Of a DNA stretch of 64,000 bases, positions 3,565 to 52,373 are shown piece by piece (within the stretch, counting starts at the first letter, position 1; every line of letters begins with the position of its first letter). Origin of the DNA: Shigella phage ChubbyThor; sequence record OL615013. The stretch is one strand, 5' to 3'. The position numbers and the translations under genes are program-made. Below the pieces are notes generated by a model. It was given only the letters and a program-made list of their open reading frames with translations. It ran no database searches and was not told where the DNA came from.

Positions 3565-4610
3565 ACCACACCTTCCAGGAACTTAGGATCAACGATCTTG
3601 CGGTCAACTGGAGAATGGGTGAGCGCAATGTTCAAACCATGATCCTGAATCCGGTTCATGTTGATGAGCTTATCGTTCAGTTTGCAGTACAGGCAGTATG
3701 CCATTTGCATGATCAAGCCACGATCAGCATCATATTCCTTCAGGTGGGCGACCACAGTTTCCCACGGGCTACCGATATCACAGTGATGAAGCACACCAGT
3801 GAACAGATTGCGGATATGGTTCTGGTTGGTCACGTTCTTGAAGTGAATCATGGAGTTGATGAACCCAGCTTCTACTTTGGTGTCCTTCGTGATCTTGCCC
3901 AGCTGCTTCTGGCTGACTTCATTGTTATAGTAATGAAGATTGTTAGAGAAGAGCTTGTACTGGCCGACATCAACATCCAGCACCTGAGCAATCACTTCCT
4001 GAAGAATAGAGAACTCAATGAAGTTGATTGAACTCATACCCCACAGAACATCCTGTGAGCGGTTGATGACCGTCAGGTTCAGACGACCTTCAACGATGGC
4101 GAACAACAGAGCCAGGTTACACACCATGTCTTTAGTCTTCGCTTCGCCGCTCTCGCTGAACTTCGCCAGACCAGCATCTGAATCTAGAGCCGGATCATAG
4201 ATGGTGAGGTACGCCTGACGGGTGTTTGGGTTCTTGCGCAGACGGTTGATGACGCTATCCAGCTGGCCATGGGCGTACAGACGCGGACCATAAGCGGCTC
4301 GCCATGTGTGGCCGTTGTCGGAAAAGTTGGCGGCGCGGGGCAACACGCGGGACAGGAAGCGAACGTCATCGCGCCCGGACAGAACCCAGAAGGTCTCGCC
4401 GATGGCAGCGATAGCCGATGAGTTACGGCCTTCAACGGAAAGCCAGCGGTCACGGATGTCACTGACGGTGATAGTCACACCATCAAGGAATCGGGTGCCG
4501 TCCGTGTTGATCTCCGCATTACCAGGATCAGATTCAATTCCGTATTCGCGGATAGCCAAGACAGCCTGCTTCAGCATGTCATTGTTGTTAATTGCTTTGA
4601 TTTCCATCAA
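3561..4610 (-). CDS. thymidylate-synthase-family deoxypyrimidylate C5-hydroxymethylase/methylase (dUMP- or dCMP-modifying)
   Basis: 349 aa; TS core blocks recognisable: RQAYLTIYDP (cf. RRIIVSAWNV), DMVCNLALLF (catalytic Cys region), RSQDVLWGMSSINF (cf. RSCDVFLGLPFNIA), NNLHYY (cf. GDTHLY); ~100-aa N-terminal extension. Confidence 0.75.
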   Translation of the reverse strand: MMEIKAINNNDMLKQAVLAIREYGIESDPGNAEINTDGTRFLDGVTITVSDIRDRWLSVEGRNSSAIAAIGETFWVLSGRDDVRFLSRVLPRAANFSDNGHTWRAAYGPRLYAHGQLDSVINRLRKNPNTRQAYLTIYDPALDSDAGLAKFSESGEAKTKDMVCNLALLFAIVEGRLNLTVINRSQDVLWGMSSINFIEFSILQEVIAQVLDVDVGQYKLFSNNLHYYNNEVSQKQLGKITKDTKVEAGFINSMIHFKNVTNQNHIRNLFTGVLHHCDIGSPWETVVAHLKEYDADRGLIMQMAYCLYCKLNDKLINMNRIQDHGLNIALTHSPVDRKIVDPKFLEGVV

Positions 4611-7944: not shown

Positions 7945-7952
7945 TATAAATA
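7945..7952 (+). promoter_or_regulatory. T4-type late promoter TATAAATA
   Basis: Exact TATAAATA ~35 nt upstream of the GTG start at 7987; the window encodes gp55. Confidence 0.6.
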
Positions 7953-10833: not shown

Positions 10834-11131
10834 GGAACACCCCCACAGTTGTCAGCACAAAACGAACCATAATGATAACCAGCAGCAACACTGTAGAAAA
10901 CACAATGCGCTTAATCATTTTGTCACGGATCTGAATGAACTGATATGAGAGGATAGCCTCGGCCTGTTGATCGGCACGAACGTTCGTGTCACGATGTGGT
11001 GACAGTGTGTAGAAGTTGATCTGGTACACATACGCATGAACCAGAGTGAAGAACGACTTCACCCAGACCAAGACAACCACTAACAACAAAGCGAACGTCA
11101 GGAAGTTCGCCAACAACCAGTAATCGACCAT
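10820..11131 (-). CDS. small membrane protein (two predicted TM helices)
   Basis: 103 aa; hydrophobic stretches LLANFLTFALLLVVVLVWV and IVFSTVLLLVIIMV. Confidence 0.45.
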   Translation of the reverse strand: MVDYWLLANFLTFALLLVVVLVWVKSFFTLVHAYVYQINFYTLSPHRDTNVRADQQAEAILSYQFIQIRDKMIKRIVFSTVLLLVIIMVRFVLTTVGVFHAAV

Positions 11132-11721
11132 TATACACCTCTGTTGAAGTCTGGATTATTCTCAATGAAGTAAGAGCCACAAGCCATTATCGCAAACGAA
11201 TCCACGAGGTCATCGATTGGCTTGGGATCCTTAACTTCCAACATGTCCATTATACCGCGCATATTAACATTGAACAGCGACTCGAAGTGAGCGATCATGG
11301 CGTGTTTATCCGCGTTGCCCTTGTCGGTGAACATCTTCTTCACATGGGATGGCGTCACGATCTGGAAGTCGAAATTGTTACGGCGCAGGGCTTGCTTCAA
11401 CAGAGAGGTATTCTCTGCGGTCTGGCAGATGTTGTTGGAGTTCTTAGAGTTGCCCATGGCATACCCTTCAAGAGTGATCGCATCCGGCTTCTCGGTCAAC
11501 AGGACAGCCTCAGCCCATTTACAGATGTTATAGAAGCGCTCTTCTGGGGTCTCCCACTTCGGCTGCTTCATGATGAGGATGTTCTGGCGAATCTGAGTGC
11601 AGTACTTCTCCACAGTATAATATGCGTAGAAGCGCAGATGATCAAAATCAAGAGGGTCCTTGTCATCCCAGAAGCACAGGGATGGGCAACCATAGGAGTA
11701 GTCGATTCCGCAATATTTCAT
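11131..11721 (-). CDS. RuvC-like Holliday junction resolvase (RNase H fold)
   Basis: 196 aa; MKYCGIDYSYG (first catalytic Asp), ITLEGY (Glu), ...DDLVDSFAIMA (C-terminal acidic pair) in RuvC order. Confidence 0.5.
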   Translation of the reverse strand: MKYCGIDYSYGCPSLCFWDDKDPLDFDHLRFYAYYTVEKYCTQIRQNILIMKQPKWETPEERFYNICKWAEAVLLTEKPDAITLEGYAMGNSKNSNNICQTAENTSLLKQALRRNNFDFQIVTPSHVKKMFTDKGNADKHAMIAHFESLFNVNMRGIMDMLEVKDPKPIDDLVDSFAIMACGSYFIENNPDFNRGV

Positions 11722-20871: not shown

Positions 20872-21531
20872 TTATTGACTTACAAACTCTAACCACTCTG
20901 GGTCGGCTTTGGGATTCCACCCAGATTTAAATTTATTAATCATTGTGAAATGCGGAGTCGTCTTGTTTTTGAACCCAAACGCTTTCGCCATGAACGTGCA
21001 ACCTTTTTGGTTGCACAACCACCAATCATAATATTCGTCGGCGCGTTTCCATATATCCAAAGACTCTTTGGTGGCATGGTTACTTTCCCAAGGTTGTTTT
21101 ATCACGCAGATATTGTTTTCCTTCAAACGTTTAGACTGTATTTCCCGCAAATGAGGATACTTTACATGTGTCTGTTTCATTTGATCGGAACGAATTTTCC
21201 TCAAATTAGGGTTGTCTTTGTACATCTGTTTATTGGAATGAGAAAGTTTTCTCCGCAACCAACCGAATAATTTGTTACAAGATCTACCGGAGAATTCATT
21301 GTTTACGCACATAGCATTAGCTGCAAATGCTAATTTGAAATTTTTGGGATATATTTTGACTAACAATTGATGTGCCAAATAATGTTCTTCTGGTGTCAAC
21401 TCCACCAGATTATGTTTGTCATCTTTCCCTCCCATACATCTAGGGATAATATGGTGGGTTTCAGAATAACCAACCAATGAACGGGTCTTGGCTCTTTGTA
21501 TCAGAGAGTCATAGATATTTTGATAATTCAT
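20872..21531 (-). mobile_element. free-standing HNH homing endonuclease gene
   Basis: 219 aa; ETHHIIPRCMGG...HN...EEHYLAH HNH motif; AT-richer than flanks; sits between nrdA and phoH. Confidence 0.7.
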
Positions 21532-22443: not shown

Positions 22444-22522
22444 GGGAACCTTCCTATATCTCAGGGGTGTCATCAACCTTAATTAAGGCGACACACCCAG
22501 CATACCCGAGGGGTGGATAAAG

Positions 22523-27815: not shown

Positions 27816-27823
27816 TATTTATA
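27816..27823 (-). promoter_or_regulatory. T4-type late promoter TATAAATA (minus strand), overlapping a GC hairpin
   Basis: Plus-strand tatttata; hairpin AAGCCCCcgaaGGGGCTT immediately 3' on plus. Confidence 0.5.
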
Positions 27824-27865
27824 AGCCCCCGAAGGGGCTTTATTCTGTTCAAGTCCAGCTAGTTT

Positions 27866-35178: not shown

Positions 35179-36294
35179 TTATGCGTCCAGTTTGTTCAGG
35201 CGTTGTTGGGCAGCATTGTAGAAGTGCTCTGCCAGTTTACAGACGTTGTCAGGGCGCTGGATGTTGTTCCCGGCGCGGATATCCTTCTTCAGGACTTCCA
35301 CTGCATCGGTTGCCACCATCTCTTCGGTGACCTCAACCTTCTCAGCCGCCACGGTGATAGTCCGGTCGATGAAGTTGTAGTCAATGCACTTGCAGCGCTT
35401 CATGGCATCACAGAACTTTTCATAATGCTTAGCATTGTCGCGGTTCTGTACGATAACCTTAACGATCTGTCCTTCAATACCCAAGCCTGTGTTCAGCCAT
35501 TCCGGGTCGATCCAGTTACCCTCATCGTCTGAGGACAACTTGGTGTAGTCATACTCCACATAGCGGAACAACGTCTGGTGCTCGCTGTTGGGGATGAATA
35601 CCTCGCCGCCGCGCATATCGTCTACATAGAAACCACGGTTGGTGCCGTCTTTGTAGTCTTCCCAGTTCAGGTGATACGGAGTCCCAATATATTGAATGTT
35701 ACCTTCCATCGAACGGGTATGGAAATGTCCCGTGTCGACCCTGGTAAACTTGGAAAGCAGAGCAACGTCGATCTGACCGTGATCACAAGTAGAAGACTGG
35801 TACATTTTGAACCCTGCCAGCTCCAGATGCGCAAAACAGTACTCGGCGTCTGTATCTTGTATCGCTTTAATAGACGCATCATAGTTCTCCTTGTTGATCC
35901 AAGGCAGCAGCAGAGTCTTGACACCCTCGATCATCACTTCGGTCGGTTCGCTGTAGTAGCAGTACACATCTGGGTCGAGTTCGTTCAGGTAGGATGGCCA
36001 GTTGATGCGGTTGGACTCTTCCAGGGTGATGTCGTGGTTGCCAACAATGCCATTCCACTTGATGTCAGCCGCTTTCAGCGCTGGAGTTAATTCATCCTTC
36101 AGCCAGTCTTTGTCGCGCCCGTACATGAATTTTCGGACGTCAAACGTGTCACCCAATTGCCAGACCTCATGGATGTCCGAGTCGACAAGCTCGGGGATGA
36201 AATAGTTGATGAGGTAGTTCTTGATGAAGTCGCGAACGTAACGGGAACCATTACGGCTCCCGATATGCAGATCGCCTATTTTAGCAATCGCCAT
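35179..36294 (-). CDS. 47: recombination endonuclease subunit gp47 (Mre11/SbcD-like phosphoesterase)
   Basis: 371 aa; IGDLHIG, GDTFDV, GNHD metallophosphatase motifs. Confidence 0.85.
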   Translation of the reverse strand: MAIAKIGDLHIGSRNGSRYVRDFIKNYLINYFIPELVDSDIHEVWQLGDTFDVRKFMYGRDKDWLKDELTPALKAADIKWNGIVGNHDITLEESNRINWPSYLNELDPDVYCYYSEPTEVMIEGVKTLLLPWINKENYDASIKAIQDTDAEYCFAHLELAGFKMYQSSTCDHGQIDVALLSKFTRVDTGHFHTRSMEGNIQYIGTPYHLNWEDYKDGTNRGFYVDDMRGGEVFIPNSEHQTLFRYVEYDYTKLSSDDEGNWIDPEWLNTGLGIEGQIVKVIVQNRDNAKHYEKFCDAMKRCKCIDYNFIDRTITVAAEKVEVTEEMVATDAVEVLKKDIRAGNNIQRPDNVCKLAEHFYNAAQQRLNKLDA

Positions 36295-37022
36295 TATTCT
36301 GTTTCTCCTTCGGTTTCGTCCAAATCGAATTGGGTTTTGCCAAAGTCCTGATCTGAATTGTCTTCGGCCTGCGCTGTTACCGTATTCTTAGCCTGCGCCA
36401 TGTATTGAAGTATGCCTTTCGCAATCTTTTTATTCGATTCTGCGAGACGAGCCGCCTCCACCTTCTCTCGCTCCTTCTGCCTTTGAGCGTCCTTTTTGTT
36501 CTCAAAGTTACCGATACGTTCACGGAAGTCCATGCCAATCCCTGTCGCGTCAACAAAGATCTCTTGTTGGAAGTCGGGATCGTCTGCCAGGCCTGCGAAC
36601 CCACCCGCCTCTTCAAATGAGCGCAATTTGATGTACGTGTGTTCTTCTTCGATGTTCAGTTTACGAGCAAATGAGCGATCCGCACACATGGTCACCCAAG
36701 AGAAGAAGTTGATCTTCCCTTTCTTTCCAATGTGGTCGACGTCAAAGGTGTGGAGGTAACGCAGGATGTTGACGATTGCTTCAGAGACCATGTCTTCACG
36801 GAAGGGATAGTCGCGATAGTTGTAGCGGGTGCTCATCTTGGTGATGATGCGCTGGACCTGTAGAGCAACATAGTTGGGGATCTTTGGAAGCCTGGTGCCT
36901 TCAGCCAGAGCCTTCTTACGAGCAGGGATCCAATCACGAAGGATACTGATGACACGCTCGTTATCTTCGTCCGTGAAATATTTGACGACATTCTCGCCAC
37001 GATCAACATAATTCATACCCAT
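36294..37022 (-). CDS. 55: late transcription sigma factor gp55
   Basis: 242 aa; blocks VISILRDW, PNYVALQVQRIITKMSTRYNYRDY, NFFSWVTMCADRSFARK collinear with T4 gp55; acidic C-terminal extension. Confidence 0.7.
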   Translation of the reverse strand: MGMNYVDRGENVVKYFTDEDNERVISILRDWIPARKKALAEGTRLPKIPNYVALQVQRIITKMSTRYNYRDYPFREDMVSEAIVNILRYLHTFDVDHIGKKGKINFFSWVTMCADRSFARKLNIEEEHTYIKLRSFEEAGGFAGLADDPDFQQEIFVDATGIGMDFRERIGNFENKKDAQRQKEREKVEAARLAESNKKIAKGILQYMAQAKNTVTAQAEDNSDQDFGKTQFDLDETEGETE

Positions 37023-37033
37023 TGTGGGAACCC

Positions 37034-37561
37034 TCAGATACCGATAAATTCATCAAAAGATCCAACAACCTTCTTCACTGAGATCTTGTCATTCTCAATC
37101 AGGAAGTTGCTGTCGTTTTTGGCTGCTGTGGCCCAGTCATCGGCAAGTTCGTTACCTTCGTGCCCCGCATGACCCTTAACCCATTTTAGTTCAACTTCAC
37201 AAATTGAACAAACGAGATCATAGATTCTGAACAGATCTTTGATGAGTTCAACGTTCTTGTCTGGGAAGCCCTGATACTCCCACTTCGCTCGCCATTCGGT
37301 GACGCTCTTGATGGTGTATTGACTGTCAGACCAAATTGTTGCCTTTGGTATTCTGCGCTCACCCTTTCCTGAGAATGCCCACAGCAGCTTCAATGCGTTG
37401 GTCACACCCAACAACTCGGCGATGTTGTTGGTGGACGGGGGAGGTAGGTGACCGAAGAACACCTTCCATTGCATACCCGATATTGGCCTGATGACAAATG
37501 CCCATCCTGCGGCCTGGTTGGTCTTCGGGTTAGAACCCCCGTCAGAATAAATTTCTATCAT
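37034..37561 (-). CDS. rnh: RNase HI-type ribonuclease H
   Basis: ORF track 37034..37657; start MIEIYSDGG; catalytic blocks YSDGGS, NNIAEL, WSDSQY, KWVKGHAGHEGNELADDWA. Confidence 0.8.
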   Translation of the reverse strand: MIEIYSDGGSNPKTNQAAGWAFVIRPISGMQWKVFFGHLPPPSTNNIAELLGVTNALKLLWAFSGKGERRIPKATIWSDSQYTIKSVTEWRAKWEYQGFPDKNVELIKDLFRIYDLVCSICEVELKWVKGHAGHEGNELADDWATAAKNDSNFLIENDKISVKKVVGSFDEFIGI

Positions 37562-37563
37562 GA

Positions 37564-37571
37564 TATAAATA
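37564..37571 (+). promoter_or_regulatory. T4-type late promoter TATAAATA
   Basis: Exact octamer ~36 nt upstream of ATG 37607; lies in the divergent region next to the rnh start. Confidence 0.45.
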
Positions 37572-37606
37572 TCCCAAACTGGTTTTATAGAAAGAGGAAT
37601 GAAACT

Positions 37607-38374
37607 ATGGCACCCCGCGCATATCGTTTCAGTCTCACCGCCCCGCAGATTGAGCAATTGCTCCTTTCTATCAATGATGCTATCAAGTCAGAAGATATCA
37701 TCTATGATTATGCTGCAGGTGGGACTGTTGGGCAAGTCGCAGCAGCGTCTGCCGTCAAGAACATGTGGTTGAAGCTCAACGAGATGGTAACAGGCCAAGG
37801 CCTCAAAGATGCCATCAACGCTGCAGAAGACAGCAACGTGTTCACCGACTATTATAAGTCTTTACTGGATCGCGAAGGCTGGAAATTTATTGGGTCTCCG
37901 GCAGATGAACTTGAGCGAGGCGACATCGACACCGCGAACTTCACGGGTGGTGAGGTCATTCTACTTCAGAAGAACGCTTCAGGCAACCCCGAATTCCAAT
38001 ACTGGAAGCGTACCCCGGTTGCTGGGGGTGATCCGACCTTCGCCTGGGCTTCGGTCTATGAAGGGAACTCCAACGACTCCAGCATCGAAATCCCGGTGAT
38101 TGGCACCAGCGTCCTCAAAGACATTCCCAAGGCTCTCTTCCATATGGTGGAGTTCCGGGTTCATGTCTATGATGAAACGCTGGGGCACTGGCAAGATACA
38201 GATGGCAAGGTGGGGTATCGTGGCGAGGATCTGTTCTACAGCACGTATAACCATGTGCAGACCAAACCGCTCGCCACCATTGACTTCAGTCAAGACACAG
38301 ATAGCATGACAGTCTCTGTGACTTCCCTGGAGCCGAATGTCAAATGCCATCTGTCGTTTATCGCTGGTTACTAA
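37607..38374 (+). CDS. hypothetical protein, probable late/structural product
   Basis: ORF track 37448..38374; ATG at 37607 with RBS aaagaggaa; plus-strand island. Confidence 0.5.
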   Translation: MAPRAYRFSLTAPQIEQLLLSINDAIKSEDIIYDYAAGGTVGQVAAASAVKNMWLKLNEMVTGQGLKDAINAAEDSNVFTDYYKSLLDREGWKFIGSPADELERGDIDTANFTGGEVILLQKNASGNPEFQYWKRTPVAGGDPTFAWASVYEGNSNDSSIEIPVIGTSVLKDIPKALFHMVEFRVHVYDETLGHWQDTDGKVGYRGEDLFYSTYNHVQTKPLATIDFSQDTDSMTVSVTSLEPNVKCHLSFIAGY

Positions 38375-40089
38375 ACCTCAAACACGGCATCAGTAAACCA
38401 AGCGGGGAAGAACTCTGGGTTGCGCATCATCAGTGATTCAAAAGAAGAATCAAGGATGTATGTCGCAGCCCAGTCATTCACGCCCCTGACCGAACGCCCG
38501 CACATCTGAACGATACGCAGTACCGCCATCCTGAAGTACGCCGATGGGTCTACACTGTTGACGTGAGCCACCAGAGGATCACCAAGGTAATCGTATGGAA
38601 CCTTGATCAAGATCTGAAATCGGCTGTAATCGCCTTTGAAGTCATACCCCTCTTCCATAGCCGGACTGGCGATGACACAAGGCGTCTTCGTCCGGAACGC
38701 GTGTTCCATGATGTCCATCAGAGCCTTACGAGTACGAGGAACGTGAATCATATTCCGGTACTTGCTAAACTTCTGTAGAGCCAGGGCGCGGTCATAGCTG
38801 ACGGTGTGGATGATACCAGACTGACCGGGGTGGAATGCGATGATCTCGTCCACGTATTCAGCCAGCTTCTTCATCTCATAGTCACCCATGTTGGACGACA
38901 TCTTCATGACGGGCATGTAGTTGACTTTGCGGTTCTCAATCGGGATAGGGTTGCCGATCTGAATCTTGTGGTACTCACCATCACGGATACCCAGTGACCG
39001 AGCGTACGAGTCAATCCCACAAATGGTCGCCGACATGTGAACATGATAGTCACCCTTGCGGAACAGGCCGAACTGAGACACATCAGAGGCAATGACAGGC
39101 TTGAACTGGATCATGCCCTTGTCCTTCTCCTGCACGATGAAGGTGCTGGCGTTGGTCTGCCCCATGATACCACAGTAGTCACTGAGGTTGTGAAGGGTGT
39201 CAATGATGTCAGACAACTTCATCACCTGGGCTTCAGTCAGGCGCTCGTCCTCTACCAGTTCCTCAAGGGTTTCTAAGAGGGCTTCAACCTTGTCATGCAG
39301 GTCGTCAAAGATCGCATGCATCTCACCTGTCAGTGAGTACAGCTTACCCAACTCGTAATTCTCTGTGCGTCTGACGATATCCGTGATGATCTCCACGATA
39401 GGCACCCCCTCGGGGATTGTCAGCAACCCCCTTACAGCATTTATGCTGTATTCCATGATCGTGTGCTCTAGGAGCGTAGAGGGCATTTTATGGCACTCGT
39501 CAAGGATCAGCATATCGGCGCGGTTTTCCGGCTTCATACAGATCGTCGTGCACATCTCCACCATCATGGCGGCGTTGGTGCAGCGCAGAGAAGAGATGTC
39601 CGTCCAAAGACGACGAGCCTGAACATATGGGCAACGATTTTTATTACAGTGGCCATCTCGGCATGCCATACGGCACTGGATAGCGTTGTAATACAGGTCA
39701 GGACTGATATGACAACGATAGTTCTTCTTGCCCTTCAGGATGTCTATCGCCACGGCTTTCTCCGCCGCATACTGATCTTGTAACCCTTTGGTCGGCGTCG
39801 TGATAGACGTGCGGAACTGACCATACGGATTGCGCTCAAGAACCAGATGGCGAAGCACGTTATGGATGGTAGTGCCAATGAGGGATTTGCCCACACCAGT
39901 CGGAGCCTCGATGATCACGTGTTTGAATTTCTTATTCACAAGGGCATCAACGGCTTCAACGATGCACTCCATCTGGCCGGGGTTGGCGGTGTCGTATGGG
40001 AAGGACTCAGTGGCAAGAGACTTGATGCGGTCTATGCTAACTGGTCCGACGCCATCAAGCGCCTTGGTATATTGGTTGAATGCTGTCAC
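38371..40089 (-). CDS. DinG/Rad3(XPD)-like Fe-S ATP-dependent DNA helicase
   Basis: 572 aa; Walker A EAPTGVGKS, DECH box, Cys cluster CRMACRDGHCNKNRCP (Fe-S domain), C-terminal helicase motifs (QMCGRSVRG). Confidence 0.6.
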   Translation of the reverse strand: MTAFNQYTKALDGVGPVSIDRIKSLATESFPYDTANPGQMECIVEAVDALVNKKFKHVIIEAPTGVGKSLIGTTIHNVLRHLVLERNPYGQFRTSITTPTKGLQDQYAAEKAVAIDILKGKKNYRCHISPDLYYNAIQCRMACRDGHCNKNRCPYVQARRLWTDISSLRCTNAAMMVEMCTTICMKPENRADMLILDECHKMPSTLLEHTIMEYSINAVRGLLTIPEGVPIVEIITDIVRRTENYELGKLYSLTGEMHAIFDDLHDKVEALLETLEELVEDERLTEAQVMKLSDIIDTLHNLSDYCGIMGQTNASTFIVQEKDKGMIQFKPVIASDVSQFGLFRKGDYHVHMSATICGIDSYARSLGIRDGEYHKIQIGNPIPIENRKVNYMPVMKMSSNMGDYEMKKLAEYVDEIIAFHPGQSGIIHTVSYDRALALQKFSKYRNMIHVPRTRKALMDIMEHAFRTKTPCVIASPAMEEGYDFKGDYSRFQILIKVPYDYLGDPLVAHVNSVDPSAYFRMAVLRIVQMCGRSVRGVNDWAATYILDSSFESLMMRNPEFFPAWFTDAVFEV

Positions 40090-40138
40090 TTTCTTCCTCC
40101 TATGGGATTCGCCTTTAGTTTAACCGATTCCCAGGAAC

Positions 40139-40175
40139 GAAAAAGCCGGAGTACAATGCTCCGGCTTTCTCTTTT
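40139..40175 (-). terminator. intrinsic terminator (AGCCGGAGcauuguaCUCCGGCU + U-run), symmetric
   Basis: Between HU stop and helicase start; A-run and T-run on both sides. Confidence 0.7.
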
Positions 40176-40218
40176 GTCACGCCCCCGCGTTGCAGAGGCC
40201 GGACCGAACCAGGTTGAA

Positions 40219-40497
40219 TTACTTGCCGTTGGCAGCGTTCTTCAGACCTTCGCCCACTTTAAATTTCACAACGTTTTTCGCTTCGATCTGAATGGTCTGA
40301 CCGTTCAGAGGGTTACGACCTTCACGAGCTTCCTGGTGCTTCACTTCGAACGCGCCGAAGCCGACCAGCTGTACAGATGCGCCTGCAGCAACTGCAGTTT
40401 TAACGCCGTCGATAAAGGATGCCACTACTTTCTCCGCTTCGCCTTTGGTGATGTTCTGGGTCGAAGCAATGTGGGCAACAAATTCAGTACGATTCAT
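40219..40497 (-). CDS. HU/IHF-family histone-like DNA-binding protein
   Basis: 92 aa; NRTEFVAHIA...GFGAFEVKHQEAREGRNPLNGQTIQI HU signature. Confidence 0.8.
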   Translation of the reverse strand: MNRTEFVAHIASTQNITKGEAEKVVASFIDGVKTAVAAGASVQLVGFGAFEVKHQEAREGRNPLNGQTIQIEAKNVVKFKVGEGLKNAANGK

Positions 40498-40587
40498 CTG
40501 GATTTCTCCGTTGGGTTAATGTTTACTTTCATGTTCACTACAAGAGGACTACAGTTTAACTAACAAATTTTATTGAATAAAGCGGAA

Positions 40588-40872
40588 TTATTGGGTGTTT
40601 CCTTTGGAGATGAATGATTCCATGTCTTCCCGAGAAATAATCGTTTCCACACGATCTTCATCGATCAACATTTCGTTCAGAAGGTCATAGCCCAGGACTT
40701 TCACACCACGCACGCCCCAAGACTTTTCCCTCAGCTCTGACTCAATACTGAGAACTCTCTGAACCGTCAGGCCACCAGAAGAGAATGGGACCGGAAAGAA
40801 AGCAGAACACACTTGGGCGCACCCATTTACACTGTAACGAACCAGCAAGACATCACACCATACGCCAGCCAT
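40588..40872 (-). CDS. hypothetical protein
   Basis: ORF track 94 aa. Confidence 0.35.
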   Translation of the reverse strand: MAGVWCDVLLVRYSVNGCAQVCSAFFPVPFSSGGLTVQRVLSIESELREKSWGVRGVKVLGYDLLNEMLIDEDRVETIISREDMESFISKGNTQ

Positions 40873-40873
40873 G

Positions 40874-41557
40874 TTACACCTCCACCGCGTGAGACTTCAG
40901 GAGTTCATCAATCGCTTTCTGACCCATGTAGGAGAATGGGGTGCGCTGGTAGAATGCCCACAGAACCAACTGAACTACAGCGCGGGAACGGGTTTCGGCT
41001 CGCATCACCAGGTCGCTGAAATGAGGAGACTCAGCCGTCCATTGGATCTCTTCGCCCAGGTCTTGATTACAGGTCACAGAGATGCGGAACTTGTTGCACA
41101 GATTGTCGACTTCTTTGTACGCATCGGTAGACACCCGAAGTTGGTCTGCATGCGCCCATGGTGTCGTGACGATTCTTTCTCCCATCACTTTATCAGAGAT
41201 AAACCAATCAATGGATTCAACAAACTTGCCGAAATGGTCGATGCGATAAATGCAGTCTCCCCCTTCCATAGAACGCATGGCATGATAGCGAGCGTCGATT
41301 TCGTTGTTGTGCATCGCGTTGAAGTCGATGAACACGCGACGCGCCAACACAACATCTTCCGGCTCCAGAGGGATGTATTCCCCTTCGTTGCTAGACCTCC
41401 GGATGTTCGGATAATGTAGAATGCCGCTTAAATGCCCAGTGCAATATACATAACGAGGTCCAACACCCCCGACACGAGCATGAGCGACATAGGATGGTTC
41501 TGTGAATCGCAAGTGGCCTTGATCGGCACCGACGATAATAGAATAAAGGTTTTCCAT
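40874..41557 (-). CDS. hypothetical protein
   Basis: ORF track 227 aa; preceded by conserved leader ...TTTGAGAGAACTATATC-ATG. Confidence 0.5.
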   Translation of the reverse strand: MENLYSIIVGADQGHLRFTEPSYVAHARVGGVGPRYVYCTGHLSGILHYPNIRRSSNEGEYIPLEPEDVVLARRVFIDFNAMHNNEIDARYHAMRSMEGGDCIYRIDHFGKFVESIDWFISDKVMGERIVTTPWAHADQLRVSTDAYKEVDNLCNKFRISVTCNQDLGEEIQWTAESPHFSDLVMRAETRSRAVVQLVLWAFYQRTPFSYMGQKAIDELLKSHAVEV

Positions 41558-41614
41558 GATATAGTTCTCTCAAATGAAAGGGCGACCTTATGATAAGCCG
41601 CCCTGGATTATTGA

Positions 41615-42523
41615 TTATTGGAAATCGCCGACATACATGTTCAGCTTGTCATCCCAGTTCAGAACGATGCGGATCGTTCCGGAATCTTCAGGGAATGACA
41701 GCTTAGAGCACATGGCGCGATTGACATAAGTCCCGCTCTGGTTGACGTTGTAGTCCTTGCCTTGCATAATACCGAAGCGCTTGAAGTCGCGAGTGACCAT
41801 CATGTTCAACGTGGTCCACGGAATGATGTCACGCAAGGCTTTACACAGGATGATCTTGCCATCCGACCTGAACGACACAAACAGCTCGTTGGCGATACGA
41901 CGGCGAGCAGGCGGCTCGAGTTCGCGCAGGGAGATAAATTCAGAGGGATCGTCCAATGCACCCAGGGTGATCATGTCTTCGCGAACTTTATTGACAATTT
42001 CAGTTACTGCTGACACGACTTCAACTGCCGGATTCGTCTTAAATGGCTCAACAGTCGTGGACATCTTGGATACAGACATCCCGTTGCCGTTGCGCTTCTC
42101 TGCATATTGCTCGACGGACTTGTCGCTCACCGGAGGCAGTTTGGTGGCAGGAGTTATGACCGGGCTTGCATCTGGTTTCGCCTTTGGGGTACTCCGAGCC
42201 GCACGCAGCTTTTCCTGGGCTTCCAGAATGCGCTCTTGACGAGAAAGTGGAGCCTTTGGGGTGATCTTCGTACTGAAATCTGAAACGCCGACCCAATCAC
42301 CCTGGTCATTACGCTTGGCGACCAGAGTCAGTTTGTGGATGATGCCCTGAAGTTTGCTCTCACGCAAGTTGTCGGCATACCAGAACTTCGCGCCCATCTC
42401 GAACTTCTCGGCGAAGATCACGCGAGCGTCTTCGTGTACCAACATAACTTTGGCTGTGTTGGGGGCAAAAGCCTTATTCTTTTCGATAATCGCCGCAGCG
42501 ATTGATTTGGTCAGGAGCATCAC
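41615..42523 (-). CDS. hypothetical two-domain protein with Ala/Pro/Lys-rich linker
   Basis: ORF track 302 aa. Confidence 0.45.
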   Translation of the reverse strand: MMLLTKSIAAAIIEKNKAFAPNTAKVMLVHEDARVIFAEKFEMGAKFWYADNLRESKLQGIIHKLTLVAKRNDQGDWVGVSDFSTKITPKAPLSRQERILEAQEKLRAARSTPKAKPDASPVITPATKLPPVSDKSVEQYAEKRNGNGMSVSKMSTTVEPFKTNPAVEVVSAVTEIVNKVREDMITLGALDDPSEFISLRELEPPARRRIANELFVSFRSDGKIILCKALRDIIPWTTLNMMVTRDFKRFGIMQGKDYNVNQSGTYVNRAMCSKLSFPEDSGTIRIVLNWDDKLNMYVGDFQ

Positions 42524-42571
42524 AGTGTATTCCTTCAGTTCACAATGTAGGGCTAAATTTTAACCCGAAAC

Positions 42572-42889
42572 TTATTTTTGAAATCCGACAAAGTCCTGGG
42601 CAATCCCCCGACAATACATCAAGTCTTTCTTCGTTTGTGGGCTGTTTTCGGCCGCAGACATCATCATTGGTAGGTCCAGCGCATTCTCTATCTGATCAAC
42701 ACTGAACAGATCAAGGCGCTTCAGCTCTCCCTCGAAGTCAGACAGGAGGATAGATGTATCTTTGTCGTCCGGATGGAATTGCTGGTACGTCTCCATCCAG
42801 GCGGCGCAGGTATTCAGTTTAGACGGTGGTGTGGCGTTTACACACCCGGCCATCAGTAACAGCAGGAGTAGGATTTTACCTTTCATCAC
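42572..42889 (-). CDS. lipoprotein, candidate o-spanin
   Basis: 105 aa; signal peptide with lipobox LLMAGC, Pro-rich mature N-terminus; start overlaps stop of upstream secreted-protein gene. Confidence 0.4.
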   Translation of the reverse strand: MMKGKILLLLLLMAGCVNATPPSKLNTCAAWMETYQQFHPDDKDTSILLSDFEGELKRLDLFSVDQIENALDLPMMMSAAENSPQTKKDLMYCRGIAQDFVGFQK

Positions 42890-43572: not shown

Positions 43573-43657
43573 GGTGATTCTCCTTATTTCATTGGATGAA
43601 ATGATAGGCGGCTCACCATGTTGAGTAAAGGGTTTCAATAAACTATCGTATTCAGAA

Positions 43658-44488
43658 TCATTGGAATTCAACTCCATACCTTTCAAGCCATTTATCACAA
43701 GTTAAAGGATCCCAACCATTATCTAACCTTCGAATAATCGGATTCACTTTAGCCCAGATCCCAGAAGAATTGGAACCGAATACTTCTTTAATGGCTTCTC
43801 CCTTGGTCTTACCTTTCAATATATGGTAATGTATGTGGGCTGCCCAACACCACCAATTATCCCTATCCGGAGTCCATCTTGGCTTCTCCCAAGGCATTTG
43901 CTCTCTGGAGGTTCTGGTAAAAGCCTCAACACGTTTCCTTTCTTGGTCCGATGTCAATTTATTGGTTAGGCTCTTTCCATAACAGTGATGGTGCTCTCCT
44001 CTCTTGACACCTGCATTTCTCTTCGCAAAGAATTGTTTCAGTTCAGGGTCTTCCTTGCGCTTGTCTTCATAGAATTTCAGCAGTGAATCTGAAGTTGCAT
44101 CTTTGGCTGCCTGAGACTTCTTTTTACCATACATCGGGTTGTTAGCCCCTCTGTTCTCTTCGGACAATCTCGCGGCGTATTTCTTACGCATTTTGGCGAA
44201 GAGATGTGAATTAACTCTGTGGCCATTCCTTCTCAGGATCATCAGCGCCTTTACCATACACGTATCCGGCAGCGCCAGAGCGAGACACACGTGAGCAATA
44301 TAGTGGACGCGGTGTGGTAATTTGATTAAATTGTTCTTATCTTTCTTGAATTGAGGAAATAGGGCGGCTGGAAGGATGTGGTGAAATTCTCCTTCCCCGT
44401 TGTAATCTGAATAGGCTGAAAGCAATTTCACATATTTGCCTACAAAGTGCGGTTTGCCACCTATTGTTAAAAGATATTCTCTTTTCAT
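43658..44488 (-). mobile_element. free-standing HNH homing endonuclease gene
   Basis: 276 aa; EFHHILPAALFP...HRVHYIAH HNH motif plus basic repeat region. Confidence 0.65.
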
Positions 44489-44946
44489 TTGTAGTGACTA
44501 TCACTGACCGTCCGGTACTTCACACCCTTGAACTGCTTGGCGACCTTGACGAACTCCATCGCTGGCATGCCCACTTTGTAGACCTTGATGCGCTGGCGGT
44601 CATCCATGTTCAGGGCGGCGACATAGCGGTGTGAGCCGTCGACCACATAGTTATCAGAAGACACCCAAACCCGACCCATGGGCTTCTTGTTTCTGATGTT
44701 CTTCATGATCTTCCAGACCTTCATCTTGTTGATTTCGTTCTGGGTGAGACGGAGCGATTTGATAGGAACCTGACCAGCGTCGATGGTGATGCCAAGTTCC
44801 TCCAAGTAGTCATGGAACGCCTGCTGCTTGTCATCGTCGATCTGTGGCATAGAAGAACGAGAAAGCCCGAGGTTTCCAACAGGAATCCTCAGGCCGTTGA
44901 TAATGTTCAACCAGTCTATGAAGGAAGACATGAACATGAGATTCAC
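44485..44946 (-). CDS. ParB/sulfiredoxin-fold nuclease-domain protein
   Basis: 153 aa; LRLTQNEINK and VVDGSHRYVAA (DGxHR-type motif). Confidence 0.4.
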   Translation of the reverse strand: MNLMFMSSFIDWLNIINGLRIPVGNLGLSRSSMPQIDDDKQQAFHDYLEELGITIDAGQVPIKSLRLTQNEINKMKVWKIMKNIRNKKPMGRVWVSSDNYVVDGSHRYVAALNMDDRQRIKVYKVGMPAMEFVKVAKQFKGVKYRTVSDSHYK

Positions 44947-49857: not shown

Positions 49858-51522
49858 TCAGATTTGTGATGCCAGTTCTACTACGAGAGGAGCGGCACGG
49901 ACACGCGCATCTTCCAGAGTTTGAGTGTTGAAGAACTTGCCGTCACGATACACCAGCTGGTGCTGGTTGTCGGCGTCTTGCACCTGATCAAAGGTGATAC
50001 CGTCAACCAACACTAGTTTACCCTGAGAGTCTTTAATGACTTTAAGGAAACCACGCGCAGACTTTTTAGTCCCGCCTTTGTCGGTCTTCGGCTCTTTGAA
50101 GATCTCACGGAATTCGCCGTTCACCTTACCAGCCGTTGCTTTCACCGCCGTGCCAGTACTGTCACGGGTGTTCATCTGGTAGGTGTAGGAACCGATACCG
50201 AACACCACGTTGATGGAAGCGAAGTTCCGGCCAGCCAGACGACTAAAGATCTGGTCTTCACGTGCCAGGGTGATGGAGTCACCGTAGATCAGACCGATGT
50301 GTTCGTCCAACAGGAAGTGGCCAGTTTCAGTTTGAGTACCGCCAAAGATCTCCCACAGGCGCTGGATAGAGCCGACTGCTTCAGAACGGCTGATGATATT
50401 ACGGTCGTCTGCCATCAGAGAGTTGATCGTGCCTTCGCCTGTGATCAGGTGATAGGTGTTCGTCTCTTCGATGTGAATGACTTCAGTGCTGCTAGACACG
50501 CCGCTGATGTTCAGCGTGGCGCGGTCTTTGAACCCCTCAATGCGGTAGCCGCCGACGATATGAACTGGGTCGCCCGAGTCAGGGCGGATCACGACTTTAC
50601 CGTTACGCGCCATGATAATGTCTTTCAGGCGAGGGAGATAGTCGTCGATGACCTGCCAGTAATCCCACGCATCAGACACGATGCTGACGATGCCATCAGG
50701 ATACACGTCCTGCACCAGGCGGCGGAAGGTTTCGAATTCGCCATCCTTCGTACCCATACACATCACGGCGTGTTCGGTAGCCGCAACAGAACCAGCAACG
50801 ACATAGTCTTCGTCGATGTCTGCGCCATAATACTCTTCTACGAAGTCCAGGGCAGGGTTGGTATCGGTGCCTTTGAAGAACACCAGATGACCGGAACCGG
50901 AAGACGCCGCGTCATGCCATCCACTCATGCCACGGAAGGAGAAGTCGTGGCCTTGGTAGTCGATGAACCAATGGTCCGGCGACACGCCTGTAGCGAGGGC
51001 AGCTTTCACCATCAGTGCCTTGTAATGCAGGGCGATGGTGGCGTTCGTCATCGGCTTCCAGATCTCAGAGCTGAACACAGTCTCCAGATAGTTGGTCAGC
51101 CAGTAGAACTCCGGCAGGGTGTTGAACATCACATACACCGGAACGCCATATGGGCACATGGTGCCTTCAGGCAGAGCACGGACTTCGATAGGCAGGTAGC
51201 CGAGGTCATGCAGGGCTTCAATATGCTCTGTGCCGACGCGGCCTGGACCCAGGACTTTGTTCATGCGACGGGCATACTTCTTCAACACCTTGGCCTTTGG
51301 GCGCTGGAAGAATGCTTCGTCAAACAGTTCGTGGAACCAGGTCATGAAGCCCTGGATGCCCCAGACCACCACGCCGTTCTTCGGCAGGTGAGAGTTGAAC
51401 AGTTTGTTGGAGCGCGGAGTTCCGTTGGAGAACACCAGCTCGCTGCCTTCAGGGAACTGATAGATGTGCCCTGATTTGTAGAAGTCGATTGCATGGATTG
51501 GGTCTAAGTGGCGCATGCTCAT
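49858..51522 (-). CDS. nicotinamide phosphoribosyltransferase-family enzyme (NadV/Nampt-like; candidate nicotinamide ADP-ribose transferase of an NAD+ reconstitution pathway)
   Basis: 554 aa; Nampt blocks HDFSFRGMSG, GTDTNPALD, VVIRPDSGDP; 4-nt overlap with upstream Prs-like gene. Confidence 0.8.
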   Translation of the reverse strand: MSMRHLDPIHAIDFYKSGHIYQFPEGSELVFSNGTPRSNKLFNSHLPKNGVVVWGIQGFMTWFHELFDEAFFQRPKAKVLKKYARRMNKVLGPGRVGTEHIEALHDLGYLPIEVRALPEGTMCPYGVPVYVMFNTLPEFYWLTNYLETVFSSEIWKPMTNATIALHYKALMVKAALATGVSPDHWFIDYQGHDFSFRGMSGWHDAASSGSGHLVFFKGTDTNPALDFVEEYYGADIDEDYVVAGSVAATEHAVMCMGTKDGEFETFRRLVQDVYPDGIVSIVSDAWDYWQVIDDYLPRLKDIIMARNGKVVIRPDSGDPVHIVGGYRIEGFKDRATLNISGVSSSTEVIHIEETNTYHLITGEGTINSLMADDRNIISRSEAVGSIQRLWEIFGGTQTETGHFLLDEHIGLIYGDSITLAREDQIFSRLAGRNFASINVVFGIGSYTYQMNTRDSTGTAVKATAGKVNGEFREIFKEPKTDKGGTKKSARGFLKVIKDSQGKLVLVDGITFDQVQDADNQHQLVYRDGKFFNTQTLEDARVRAAPLVVELASQI

Positions 51523-52373
51523 TTTACACGTCCTGTATTTTCAGTTTTGAAAGGAAGACCGTCGGCGGTGATATTCTCCCACCAGACAGTGTCGGCATAC
51601 ACAGCATCGTAAATCCCGTCGAAAACAGAGAGACCTTTGCTGAAGATGCCATGGGTAACGAAGAGCGTCATGTGTTTGGGCTTGTGCTTCTGAAGCTCTT
51701 TGCCTAACTCAACGAACGTGCGCCCACCGTCGCAGATATCATCAACCACAACCAGATAGCGGTCTTTGATCAGTTCAGGGTTTGTAATGCTCACCCCAAT
51801 GATCTCACCAGTCTTGGTGTCACGGTTCTTGTGTCCGTAGACAACAGGAACACCATCCAGAGACAGGCTGAGGGCTTCGGTCTTCTTCGCCGCGCCACCG
51901 TCAGGGGCTACCAACACAGCATTGTTCCCACGGATGAACCAGCCCAGATACTGACGCACGATGTAATCTTGCGGGACAACATGGACGTTGTTGATCAGAG
52001 AAGTCACAACATGGCTGTGAGGGTCTTTGATCGCCACGCGGTCAAAGTTCATGCTATTGATGAACTCAGCCGCCCACTTCACAGACAGAGGCTCGCCGAA
52101 GTCGCAATGGCGGTCCTGGCGAGCATACGGGAAGTAAGGGATATACGCATGGAATGTCGTCAGACGATCCACGTTGCCCAGGCCACGCACGGCGTTTACC
52201 AGAAGCGCCAGCTCAATGAAGTCGGCTGATGATTTGATGTGAGCATCAATCACCACGTTCTGGACGTGACCGACAGGGATGCCAGCCTTTTGGATCTTGA
52301 TATGTTCCTCACCACCTGGGAAGGTGAAGTGCTTGTAGAACACATCTTGGTCGTTCAATTTCAAACGAAACAT
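51519..52373 (-). CDS. ribose-phosphate pyrophosphokinase-family enzyme (Prs-like; candidate ADP-ribose pyrophosphokinase)
   Basis: 284 aa; IPYFPYARQDRH (cf. IPYFGYARQDRR) and PRPP-binding loop VVVDDICDGGRT. Confidence 0.8.
   Translation of the reverse strand: MFRLKLNDQDVFYKHFTFPGGEEHIKIQKAGIPVGHVQNVVIDAHIKSSADFIELALLVNAVRGLGNVDRLTTFHAYIPYFPYARQDRHCDFGEPLSVKWAAEFINSMNFDRVAIKDPHSHVVTSLINNVHVVPQDYIVRQYLGWFIRGNNAVLVAPDGGAAKKTEALSLSLDGVPVVYGHKNRDTKTGEIIGVSITNPELIKDRYLVVVDDICDGGRTFVELGKELQKHKPKHMTLFVTHGIFSKGLSVFDGIYDAVYADTVWWENITADGLPFKTENTGRVK

Follow-up and report, generated by a model that had tools for sequence, protein, structure and literature searches.

The genes for an HU-family DNA-binding protein and an XPD/Rad3/DinG-family helicase lie on the same strand of the phage DNA, and the spacer between them carries a symmetric terminator hairpin (Table 1). 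The helicase stop codon overlaps the stop of a convergent gene by 4 nt. A late promoter box precedes the convergent gene, and an RNase HI gene lies in the same region. A gene for a RuvC-like resolvase is found elsewhere in the window, by which we mean the whole 64-kb stretch of DNA analysed here.

Table 1. Features of the window considered in this study, in order of position
Feature	Position	Strand	Remarks
RuvC-like Holliday-junction resolvase	11131..11721	-	196 aa; invariant D7, E85, D171, D174; GKGNAxK motif
Cellular-type RNase HI (PF00075)	37034..37657	-	start codon uncertain
Exact T4-type late promoter box TATAAATA (predicted)	37564..37571	+	35 nt upstream of convergent gene
Convergent late gene, phrog_3833	37607..38374	+	'virion structural protein' in some relatives
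XPD/Rad3/DinG-family SF2 helicase	38371..40089	-	572 aa; profile, structure and homology searches
Compact putative 4Fe-4S module C126-x12-C139-x8-C148-x4-C153	39631..39714	-	inserted between helicase motifs Ia and II
Conserved box GG(K)TAAACTA (TACAAT or TAGAAT in two genera)	40117..40124	-	five-spacer alignment; about 30 nt upstream of helicase start
Bidirectional (symmetric) intrinsic terminator hairpin AGAAAGCCGGAG-cauugua-CUCCGGCUUUUU	40139..40171	.	between HU and helicase
HU-family DNA-binding protein	40219..40497	-	92 aa; 100% identical to Ag3 orf00127

In a megablast search, the window was ~96-97% nucleotide-identical to and collinear with the Agtrevirus phages Ag3, P46FS4 and SKML-39. 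It matched the 33.3-96.6 kb region of Ag3 in collinear blocks of 95-99.7% identity, and positions 1-24000 were 97.2% identical to P46FS4 and 97.1% to SKML-39. Taxonomy records agree with this high identity and collinearity with type members. The nucleotide comparison assigns the window to a ViI-like genome of the genus Agtrevirus in the family Ackermannviridae (order Pantevenvirales, T4-core phages). The preliminary description had guessed at ViI/CBA120-type Ackermannviridae and called for a genome comparison; the comparison of the 64-kb window bears out that guess, and the placement is in Agtrevirus and not in Tevenvirinae. The phage has many genes of the T4 core (gp32, gp33, gp55, gp46/47, UvsX, gp61-like primase and NrdAB), which could suggest a Tevenvirinae/Straboviridae genome that recently imported the helicase, HU and RuvC-like genes by horizontal transfer. 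This explanation has virtually no chance of being right and is already refuted by the identity of the window to Agtrevirus genomes and its collinearity with them. The helicase, HU and RuvC-like genes are all conserved across genera of Ackermannviridae, and the base composition of the HU gene is typical of the phage. Because of the identity to Agtrevirus genomes, placement outside Ackermannviridae is effectively excluded.

The helicase gene starts with GTG, preceded by an AGGAGG Shine-Dalgarno sequence. Its product has the Walker A motif APTGVGKS (aa 62-69), motif II DECH (aa 197-200), motif III SATICG (aa 353-358) and motif VI QMCGRSVRG (aa 528-536). APTGVGKS, DECH and QxxGRxxR (528-535) are invariant in an alignment of 23 family members, down to 36% identity. 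The C-terminal part matched Pfam Helicase_C_2 (PF13307; 4.8e-12, 46.7 bits, cut-off 25.3), and the protein was also matched by NCBIfam and PHROG profiles, with phrog_2488 as its phage-specific family. A family profile searched against PDB found DinG at 4.9e-19. The AlphaFold2 model (pLDDT 88.3, pTM 0.87) has long helices at aa 226-311, between motifs II and III, and the model and the Foldseek search together recovered the four-domain architecture of HD1, FeS, Arch and HD2. The top PDB matches were DinG, XPD and CasDinG, all over the full length (E 1e-26 to 1e-14, TM 0.5-0.67), with E. coli DinG at E 1e-26 and XPD at 1.6e-24. In common with E. coli DinG (PDB 6fwr/6fws) and archaeal XPD (PDB 4a15, 2vsf, 3crv), the phage helicase has a DExH SF2 core, a module of four Cys placed between motifs Ia and II, an inserted arch and the Helicase_C_2 domain, but the identity is only 12-16% and its motif II reads DECH. 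On its SF2 core, Walker A motif, DExH motif II and Helicase_C_2 domain, the protein is a member of the XPD/Rad3/DinG family, but it is an orthologue of none of DinG, YoaA and Rad3. Its scores are far below the NCBIfam equivalog cut-offs (DinG 64 vs 598 bits; YoaA 57 vs 680; rad3 24 vs 247), and therefore the substrate preferences of these enzymes are not transferable to it. The 572-aa DinG/XPD-like SF2 helicase of the preliminary description thus stands on Pfam, model and motif evidence, with its reading frame placed exactly.

The helicase gene is grouped with RNase HI, gp55, gp47 and gp46 in a module for replication and recombination, which Vibrio phage K476 has conserved. RNase HI remains near the helicase in distant relatives. 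For its start codon, a 207-aa TTG reading agrees with the Gloob annotation; the Ag3 annotation gives 146 aa. In Rhizobium phage TM30 the helicase is located among ligase, primase and polymerase genes. Members of phrog_2488 are found in Ackermannviridae, in Delftia phage PhiW-14 and in viruses of Vibrio, Rhizobium, Acinetobacter and haloarchaea. Two hypermodifiers, Delftia phage PhiW-14 and the ViI-type phages, both carry the helicase family, which gave rise to the idea that the helicase is linked to thymidine hypermodification as a general rule. There was no strict association. Homologues of the Ag3 protein matching ViI 'Kinase2' (5-hmdU DNA kinase family) were found only in Ackermannviridae, related ~157-kb Vibrio phages and a few Aeromonas/Erwinia phages. 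The rule was rejected because the helicase is also found beyond the Kinase2 range, in Rhizobium, Halorubrum, Haloarcula and Prevotella viruses.

Four cysteines of helicase domain 1, located between motifs Ia and II, are conserved in the family. C126, C139, C148 and C153 are invariant in the 23 homologues, and in a comparison of the family profile with PDB C148/C153 fell on C199/C205 of E. coli DinG and on the 'C..CPY' ligands of Rad3. The preliminary description had named a 16-residue four-Cys Fe-S segment, CRMACRDGHCNKNRCP, which corresponds to helicase residues 139-154 (nt 39628-39675). The module is indeed in the canonical position with four invariant Cys, but the ligand set has to be corrected. 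The segment contains three of the invariant Cys (C139, C148, C153) together with C143, which falls within the module and is not conserved among the homologues, and C126 lies upstream of it. The likely cluster ligands are therefore C126, C139, C148 and C153, as their invariance indicates. The module is much shorter than in the solved XPD and DinG structures, with 27 residues from first to last Cys compared with about 85 in E. coli DinG. This unusual compactness, and a pLDDT of only 77-81 across the module in the AlphaFold2 model, could mean that the four Cys are zinc ligands, or that the module is purely structural or vestigial like that of CasDinG, which is among the structural matches, and holds no 4Fe-4S cluster. 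The FeS domain of CasDinG is described as vestigial (PMC10450177). We consider such a module quite improbable here, for all four Cys are kept down to 36% identity, unlike in a vestigial domain, the last two align with cluster ligands of DinG and Rad3 (CPY(F)), and the module is in its canonical place. A putative 4Fe-4S cluster, whose occupancy we infer, remains the preferred reading.

The hairpin in the HU-helicase spacer has a 13-bp stem (dG -21.6 kcal/mol, z -3.0 vs shuffles) and is flanked by runs of A and of T on opposite sides, in keeping with the symmetric terminator described earlier after the HU gene. A terminator is present at the same place in five Ackermannviridae genera, where the stems covary and the gene order HU, terminator, helicase is conserved, and the record of Klebsiella phage Magnus annotates the corresponding hairpin as a terminator. 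RNAalifold counted too few pairs on the MAFFT alignment of the spacers, owing to misregistration of the 3' arm in two sequences, a problem that disappeared when the spacers were folded one by one. The conserved box in the spacer, GG(K)TAAACTA, is a possible -10 element for a promoter of the helicase itself. The idea that GTTAAACT, found upstream of HU as well as of the helicase, is an enriched promoter word was rejected, as it was not significant window-wide (3 matches vs 1.1 expected; 13/100 shuffles equal it). It was retained solely for its conservation in the spacer between the two genes.

The HU-family protein noted in the preliminary description, placed there at its exact coordinates, matched Pfam PF00216 (Bac_DNA_binding) over profile positions 1-90 of 90 (5.9e-30, 103.8 bits, cut-off 22.4). 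It belongs to the phage family phrog_379. The best PDB matches were HU/IHF proteins at 1e-18 to 1e-22. The GFGxF core (G46, F47, G48, F50), the arm arginines R58 and R61 and the intercalating arm-tip proline P63 are present, and length and fold family are likewise common to the phage protein and bacterial HU/IHF (B. stearothermophilus HU, PDB 1huu; E. coli HU alpha/beta). With a full-length match at about 90 aa and these residues, the 92-aa protein is, by its sequence features, a canonical HU. For each of four NCBIfam equivalogs the score fell short of the cut-off, with 68 of 157 bits for HU-beta, 65 of 162 for HU-alpha, 73 of 111 for IHF-alpha and 69 of 115 for IHF-beta. Recent capture from the host was rejected because the protein scores no closer to enterobacterial than to Gram-positive HUs (E. 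coli HU no closer than Bacillus HU); GC and GC3 of the gene are also typical of the phage (z -0.13 and -1.5).

In Ackermannviridae DNA, 5-NeOmdU replaces about 40% of thymidine (PMC11721090; PMC5889632). The HU could then be a specialist similar to TF1 of phage SPO1, preferring the hmU-derived hypermodified DNA of the phage and regulating transcription or replication, and not a generic architectural protein. SPO1 TF1 (PDB 1exe/1wtu) is likewise a phage-encoded HU homologue, from a phage whose hmU route replaces thymine in the DNA, and it is detectably related to the HU (PDB 1exe, 2.1e-10). The HU gene is conserved in every genus sampled, and some depositors label the protein 'transcription factor 1'. 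The similarity to TF1 is nevertheless weaker than that to cellular HU (43-44 bits vs 68-82 bits for ordinary bacterial HU/IHF), and the protein has 92 aa compared with 99 residues in the TF1 chains. SPbeta and Ralstonia phages are also among the many phages that carry an HU homologue and have no known modification, and a binding preference is not readable from sequence. We consider a TF1-like specialist unlikely. An architectural HU would act as a homodimer that bends DNA with its beta-arms. It would be made from its own short transcription unit, closed by the strong bidirectional terminator, and would most likely be an abundant factor for replication, recombination or packaging of phage DNA.

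The late promoter box occurs as 3 exact matches in the window, compared with 0.46 expected. It is found at the same position in Vi01 (TATAAGTA) and Bue1 (TATAAATA) and is conserved in Kuttervirus and Nezavisimistyvirus. This conserved promoter drives a gene convergent on the helicase gene, and late transcripts are therefore probably antisense across the helicase gene, with the predicted antisense region reaching up to the bidirectional terminator. The late promoter and the predicted antisense transcription are one modest new detail of this study. The block of HU, terminator, helicase and convergent late gene might even work as a temporal switch, in which late transcripts from the promoter would pass through the convergent gene, run antisense over the whole helicase gene and stop at the plus-strand face of the terminator, so that the helicase would be silenced late in infection. 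We regard such a switch as unlikely. A looser and speculative variant is that HU and the helicase may be tuned to 5-NeOmdU-modified DNA.

The RuvC-like protein matched PF02075 at 23.3 bits, marginally above the cut-off of 22.2, and phrog_159 at 1.8e-53. E. coli RuvC has an acidic catalytic tetrad of D7, E66, D138 and D141. The corresponding D7, E85, D171 and D174 of the phage protein do not vary among 14 homologues, and neither does the GKGNAxK motif. In an alignment with P. aeruginosa RuvC, D171/D174 fall on its DxxD and E85 on the region of the catalytic Glu. A model with pLDDT 88.3 has an RNase H-like fold closest to RuvC. The top 12 Foldseek matches were all bacterial RuvC (best 1.5e-8), followed by Ydc2, MOC1, phage bIL67 RuvC and fowlpox resolvase. 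In the profile and catalytic-residue check suggested for it, the RuvC-fold resolvase proposed earlier for this gene is upheld by the Pfam score, phrog_159, the fold matches and the DEDD tetrad. The RNase H-like fold, the DEDD tetrad and a GxGxAxK motif are shared with bacterial RuvC (PDB 1hjr, 4ld0, 6lw3, 7xhj) and Lactococcus phage bIL67 RuvC (PDB 4ktw), but the identity is 13-18%, and the phage protein exceeds them in length by about 30 residues and has a disordered loop at 88-103. It scored 31 bits against the bacterial RuvC NCBIfam equivalog cut-off of 163. Single-sequence phmmer against PDB gave no meaningful match, and the call needed the family profile and the fold search. The bare Pfam margin, this phmmer result, the low-confidence loop (residues 88-103) and IS621 recombinase RuvC-like domains among the weaker fold matches would fit some other nuclease of the RNase H fold, for example one for host DNA degradation or one related to transposases, and not a junction resolvase. 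Such an identity is very improbable given that bona fide resolvases follow bacterial RuvC in the fold search and that the tetrad and GKGNAxK are invariant. The protein is also the sole candidate resolvase in a genome with UvsX, UvsY, UvsW and gp46/47 and without endonuclease VII. No RuvA/RuvB partners are annotated in Ag3. We take the protein as a RuvC-like resolvase, which would be a metal-dependent dimeric nuclease resolving Holliday junctions and branched DNA prior to packaging.

In T4, junction resolution is assigned to endonuclease VII, and the accessory clearing of DNA to Dda. A search for endonuclease VII (gp49) with a validated query gave no homologue, either in the window or across the complete Ag3 genome (best tblastn E = 2), in line with the earlier suggestion that a RuvC-fold protein is used where T4 would use endonuclease VII. 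A Dda homologue was likewise absent from the window and from Ag3. Both searches combined tblastn with annotation, which a very divergent analogue could escape. T4 endonuclease VII has a fold (His-Cys box/HNH superfamily) unrelated to that of the RuvC-like protein, which presumably has its role of debranching replicative and recombinant DNA before packaging. T4 Dda, an SF1B 5'-3' accessory helicase, belongs to an unrelated superfamily. We propose that the phage helicase could do the work of Dda, as a non-replicative accessory helicase within T4-core replication and recombination machinery. It would be an ATP-driven translocase, for which we infer 5'-to-3' polarity, with ssDNA threaded between the four-Cys Fe-S module and the helical arch domain. 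Its most likely task would be to assist replication and recombination as an accessory helicase that removes D-loops, R-loops or protein blocks. Our main reading, with a probability of about 0.88, is that the window comes from an Agtrevirus genome and that the helicase, HU and RuvC-like protein are three accessories typical of the family and absent in T4, in the roles proposed here.

The Ag3 RefSeq record already annotates all three genes, and the three-gene finding is confirmed but already known from annotated published relatives. In the papers searched we found no biochemical, functional or genetic studies of the three Ackermannviridae proteins. The result matters little except for correct annotation and for placing the window in Agtrevirus. 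The phrog_2488 helicase family, with its very compact four-Cys module, appears to be biochemically unstudied and could be a minimal model of an Fe-S helicase, which is an opportunity and not a discovery. Our analysis confirms that ViI-type phages combine a T4-like replication/recombination core with an XPD/DinG-type helicase, HU, an RNase HI of cellular type and a resolvase of RuvC type, where T4 has Dda and endonuclease VII.

Genome comparison placed this phage among the Agtrevirus phages and not in Tevenvirinae. In megablast, window positions 36000-42600 matched Shigella phage Gloob at 96.2% identity with 100% query cover and Shigella phage Ag3 at 96.0%. Positions 1-24000 matched Salmonella phage P46FS4 at 97.2%, SKML-39 at 97.1% and Ag3 at 96.9%. 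Local blastn showed that Ag3 33,323-96,619 is collinear with the entire window at 95-99.7% identity, interrupted by a few indels. These relatives belong to genus Agtrevirus, subfamily Aglimvirinae, family Ackermannviridae (order Pantevenvirales in the current taxonomy). Because of this collinearity, the 96-97% identity and the taxonomy, the suggestion of a ViI/CBA120-type member of Ackermannviridae in the preliminary description was correct. The T4 core that it saw beside the accessory genes is annotated in the matching stretch of Ag3, and includes UvsX, gp32, gp33, gp55, gp46/47, primase, NrdAB, gp44/62/45, UvsW and UvsY. The helicase, HU and RuvC-like genes had also been positioned exactly (see the table below).

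Features of the accessory loci (window coordinates)
Feature	Position	Strand	Remarks
RuvC-like ORF	11131..11721	-	196 aa
HNH-like ORF	20872..21531	-	219 aa; 'HHIIPR...HN...H' motif; between NrdA and PhoH
RNase HI	37034..37657	-	PF00075, 4.6e-25; cellular-type
T4 late-promoter box TATAAATA, exact	37564-37571	+	35 nt 5' of ATG of convergent gene
Convergent gene	37607..38374	+	phrog_3833; 'virion structural protein' in some records
Helicase ORF	38371..40089	-	572 aa; GTG start with AGGAGG upstream
Terminator hairpin AGAAAGCCGGAG-cauugua-CUCCGGCUUUUU	40139-40171		between HU and helicase
HU ORF	40219..40497	-	92 aa
DUF7425 protein	40588..40872	-	94 aa; phrog_5397; upstream of HU
NAMPT/NAPRTase-like gene	49858..51522	-	554 aa; PF04095
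Ribose-phosphate-pyrophosphokinase-like (Prs-like) gene	51519..52373	-	284 aa; PF13793 + PF00156

Profile searches and a structural model support the reading of the 572-aa protein as a DinG/XPD-like helicase with a putative Fe-S cluster. It matches Helicase_C_2 (4.8e-12), ResIII and DEAD in Pfam and phrog_2488, 'DNA helicase', in PHROGs (2.5e-260), and scores below the NCBIfam cut-offs for DinG (64 vs 598 bits), YoaA (57 vs 680) and rad3 (24 vs 247). A database search found 281 relatives in all Ackermannviridae genera, Vibrio phages of ~157 kb, Delftia phage PhiW-14 and Acinetobacter phage SH-Ab 15599, and tblastn found further ones in Rhizobium, Sinorhizobium and haloarchaeal viruses. Across 23 aligned sequences, down to 36% identity, the motifs APTGxGK, DECH, SATxCG and QxxGRxxRG are invariant, as are exactly four cysteines between motifs Ia and II (C126, C139, C148 and C153). 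Against PDB sequences, the family profile matched E. coli DinG at 4.9e-19. The AlphaFold2 model built on the alignment has a pLDDT of 88.3 (77-81 in the cysteine region) and a pTM of 0.87, and its best PDB matches, all full-length, are DinG (1e-26), Thermoplasma XPD, Finegoldia DinG, CasDinG and human XPD.

The four invariant cysteines are the likely cluster ligands predicted from the alignment. Their spacing, C-x12-C-x8-C-x4-C, is unusually compact. In the family-profile alignment, C148 and C153 fall opposite two cluster ligands of DinG (C199 and C205) and opposite the ligands in the 'C...CPYF' stretch of yeast Rad3. The preliminary description had assigned a four-Cys cluster to the segment CRMACRDGHCNKNRCP (residues 139-154). 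A cysteine module does lie between motifs Ia and II, but C143 in that segment is variable in the alignment and C126 lies outside it.

The protein would best be understood as a 5'-to-3' accessory helicase that may aid recombination-dependent replication, or may remove R-loops, D-loops or protein blocks. In T4, this niche is filled by Dda. A tblastn search with the Dda sequence from the T4 record detected no homologue, either in the window or in whole Ag3 (best E 0.9, a P-loop match in PhoH), and the only helicases annotated in Ag3 are gp41, UvsW and the counterpart of the 572-aa protein (PMC3121705). The proposed role would also resemble that of E. coli DinG, for which one report describes action at transcription-replication conflicts (PMC2770101).

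The order of the locus is HU, helicase, convergent gene, RNase HI, gp55, gp47 and gp46. The stretch from helicase to gp46 is also kept in Vibrio phage K476 (helicase identity 47%), and in Rhizobium phage TM30 the homologue lies among genes for ligase, primase, a Cas4-type exonuclease and DNA polymerase. The lasting closeness to a cellular-type RNase HI would suit helicase work on RNA:DNA hybrids. The T4 rnh product, in contrast, is a FEN-type nuclease, and RNase HI is another accessory without an obvious match to it. The start of RNase HI is ambiguous: the 207-aa TTG reading, as annotated in Gloob, overlaps the start and late promoter of the convergent gene, and 146 aa are annotated in Ag3.

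The HU protein aligns with PF00216 over its full length (5.9e-30) and also matches phrog_379; the GFGxF core, R58, R61 and P63 at the arm tip are all present. Among solved structures, IHF and HU proteins score highest (82-68 bits); E. coli HU alpha scores 58, HU beta 57 and SPO1 TF1 44, and the protein is under every NCBIfam equivalog cut-off. Ag3 orf00127 has the identical sequence (100%), and homologues with 52-99% identity occur throughout Ackermannviridae. Recent acquisition from the host was rejected because the GC content of the gene does not stand out from that of the window (z -0.13), which indicates a long-resident gene. Its Leu, Arg and Gly codons are major ones only, in a small sample, and this is consistent with an abundant protein. 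It is possible that HU, like TF1, prefers the hypermodified DNA of the phage; in ViI and CBA120, ~40% of thymidine is 5-NeOmdU (PMC11721090; PMC5889632). The 'thymidylate synthase' gp059 of Ag3, at window ~3560-4610 (-) by collinearity, may be a dUMP hydroxymethyltransferase, in which case it would feed the hypermodification pathway from 5-hmdU to 5-NeOmdU described for ViI-type phages (PMC5889632). Outside the window, Ag3 has besides HU a longer 'histone family DNA-binding' protein of 170 aa, gp008 (NC_013693 6634..7146), so the family has two HU-superfamily genes. At the position of the DUF7425 gene, Ag3 has two small annotated ORFs, gp114 and gp115, with an indel of ~260 bp at window 40592-40603; Vi01, Magnus and Bue1 have genes labelled 'superinfection exclusion' upstream of HU instead.

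HU is a short transcription unit with its own terminator. The hairpin between HU and the helicase has a folding energy of -21.6 kcal/mol (z = -3.0), equalled by only 1 of 200 shuffles. It is flanked by an A-rich run and, on the opposite side, by a T-run, which makes 'symmetric', as the terminator had been called, a fair term. HU precedes the helicase in Agtrevirus, Kuttervirus (Vi01), Taipeivirus (Magnus), Miltonvirus (phiMAM1) and Nezavisimistyvirus (Bue1), and in each of these five genera the spacer contains a hairpin with a folding energy between -21 and -25 kcal/mol; the Magnus record labels it a terminator. The stems show compensatory changes (GCCGGAG/CUCCGGC, GCCGAGG/CCUCGGC, GCCGGGG/CCCCGGC, ACCCCGG/CCGGGGU and ACCCCGC/GCGGGGU). 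This conserved, covarying hairpin and the Magnus annotation are the basis for regarding HU as separately terminated. Another strong hairpin of terminator type (10 bp, 6 of them G-C) was found at 41579-41604 (-), just 3' of a 302-aa gene at 41615..42523 (-), in keeping with the many terminators described between genes of Ag3 (PMC3121705).

The convergent gene is the only plus-strand gene of the locus, and its stop overlaps that of the helicase by 4 nt. A matching late box occupies the same position in Vi01 (TATAAGTA) and Bue1 (TATAAATA). The window has 3 exact boxes vs 0.46 expected, and the phage encodes gp55 and gp33. From 38374 to the hairpin, a terminator scan found a sole, weak plus-strand candidate of 5 base pairs. 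Given the late box, gp55/gp33 and this single weak candidate, late transcripts likely cross the helicase gene antisense and end where the bidirectional terminator acts on the plus strand, which may be a reason for its symmetry. The other exact boxes are at 7945-7952 (+) and 27816-27823 (-). By the offset of the collinear block, the former lies near the start of the plus-strand gp54-like tail-tube initiator gene of Ag3, which fits a late promoter.

The claim that a RuvC-fold resolvase stands where T4 uses endonuclease VII (gp49) is supported, within the sensitivity of tblastn, by RuvC matches and by the lack of a gp49 homologue or annotation. The 196-aa protein is barely over the Pfam RuvC cut-off (23.3 vs 22.2 bits), under the NCBIfam RuvC equivalog cut-off (1.5e-7), and matches phrog_159 ('RuvC-like Holliday junction resolvase') at 1.8e-53. 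D7, E85, D171, D174 and a GKGNAxK motif are kept in 14 homologues, down to 32% identity. The family profile matches RuvC of Deinococcus, Pseudomonas and Thermus, with D171/D174 aligned to the RuvC DxxD. For the AlphaFold2 model (pLDDT 88.3; single disordered loop, residues 88-103), the twelve best PDB matches are all bacterial RuvC; Ydc2, MOC1, Lactococcus phage bIL67 RuvC and fowlpox resolvase come next. A tblastn search with a T4 gp49 query, checked to contain Endonuclease_7 and the T4 dimerisation domain, detected no homologue in either the window or complete Ag3 (best E 2.0), and Ag3 has no endonuclease VII annotation.

Other differences from Ag3 were observed. Positions 27842-29262 and 43657-44517 do not align to Ag3 at blastn level; the first is the position of the Ag3 hypothetical gene gp096. 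Close relatives carry homing endonucleases at differing sites. The 219-aa HNH-like ORF has no Pfam match at 1e-3 and is absent from Ag3, and the Ag3 homing endonuclease gp085, between PhoH and endolysin, is missing in the window (site 22474-22480). The NAMPT-like and Prs-like genes overlap by 4 nt; as a pair they may be akin to NARP1 (Adps and Namat), a phage pathway of NAD+ reconstitution that counters NAD-depleting defences. A deletion of ~865 bp in Ag3 merges them into a 547-aa ORF (Prs-like residues 1-222 and NAMPT-like 227-554, each >99% identical). Because of this fusion, Ag3 probably lacks an intact pair, or its record is misassembled.

Ackermannviridae is a recognised family, and the three genes, correctly identified here, were already known at annotation level. 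Ag3 RefSeq labels them 'DNA helicase', 'DNA binding protein' (noted as HU-similar) and 'RuvC-like Holliday junction resolvase', and the names 'ATP-dependent DNA helicase DinG' and 'DNA-binding protein HU-beta' occur in other records. The 2011 Ag3 paper has orf125 among the helicases (PMC3121705). A literature search found no functional study of the helicase, HU or RuvC-like protein, and neither a 2024 review on the family nor one from 2026 on Fe-S proteins in nucleic-acid metabolism mentions them. To this our analysis makes minor additions: a refined set of predicted cluster ligands, a covarying bidirectional terminator and a convergent late promoter.
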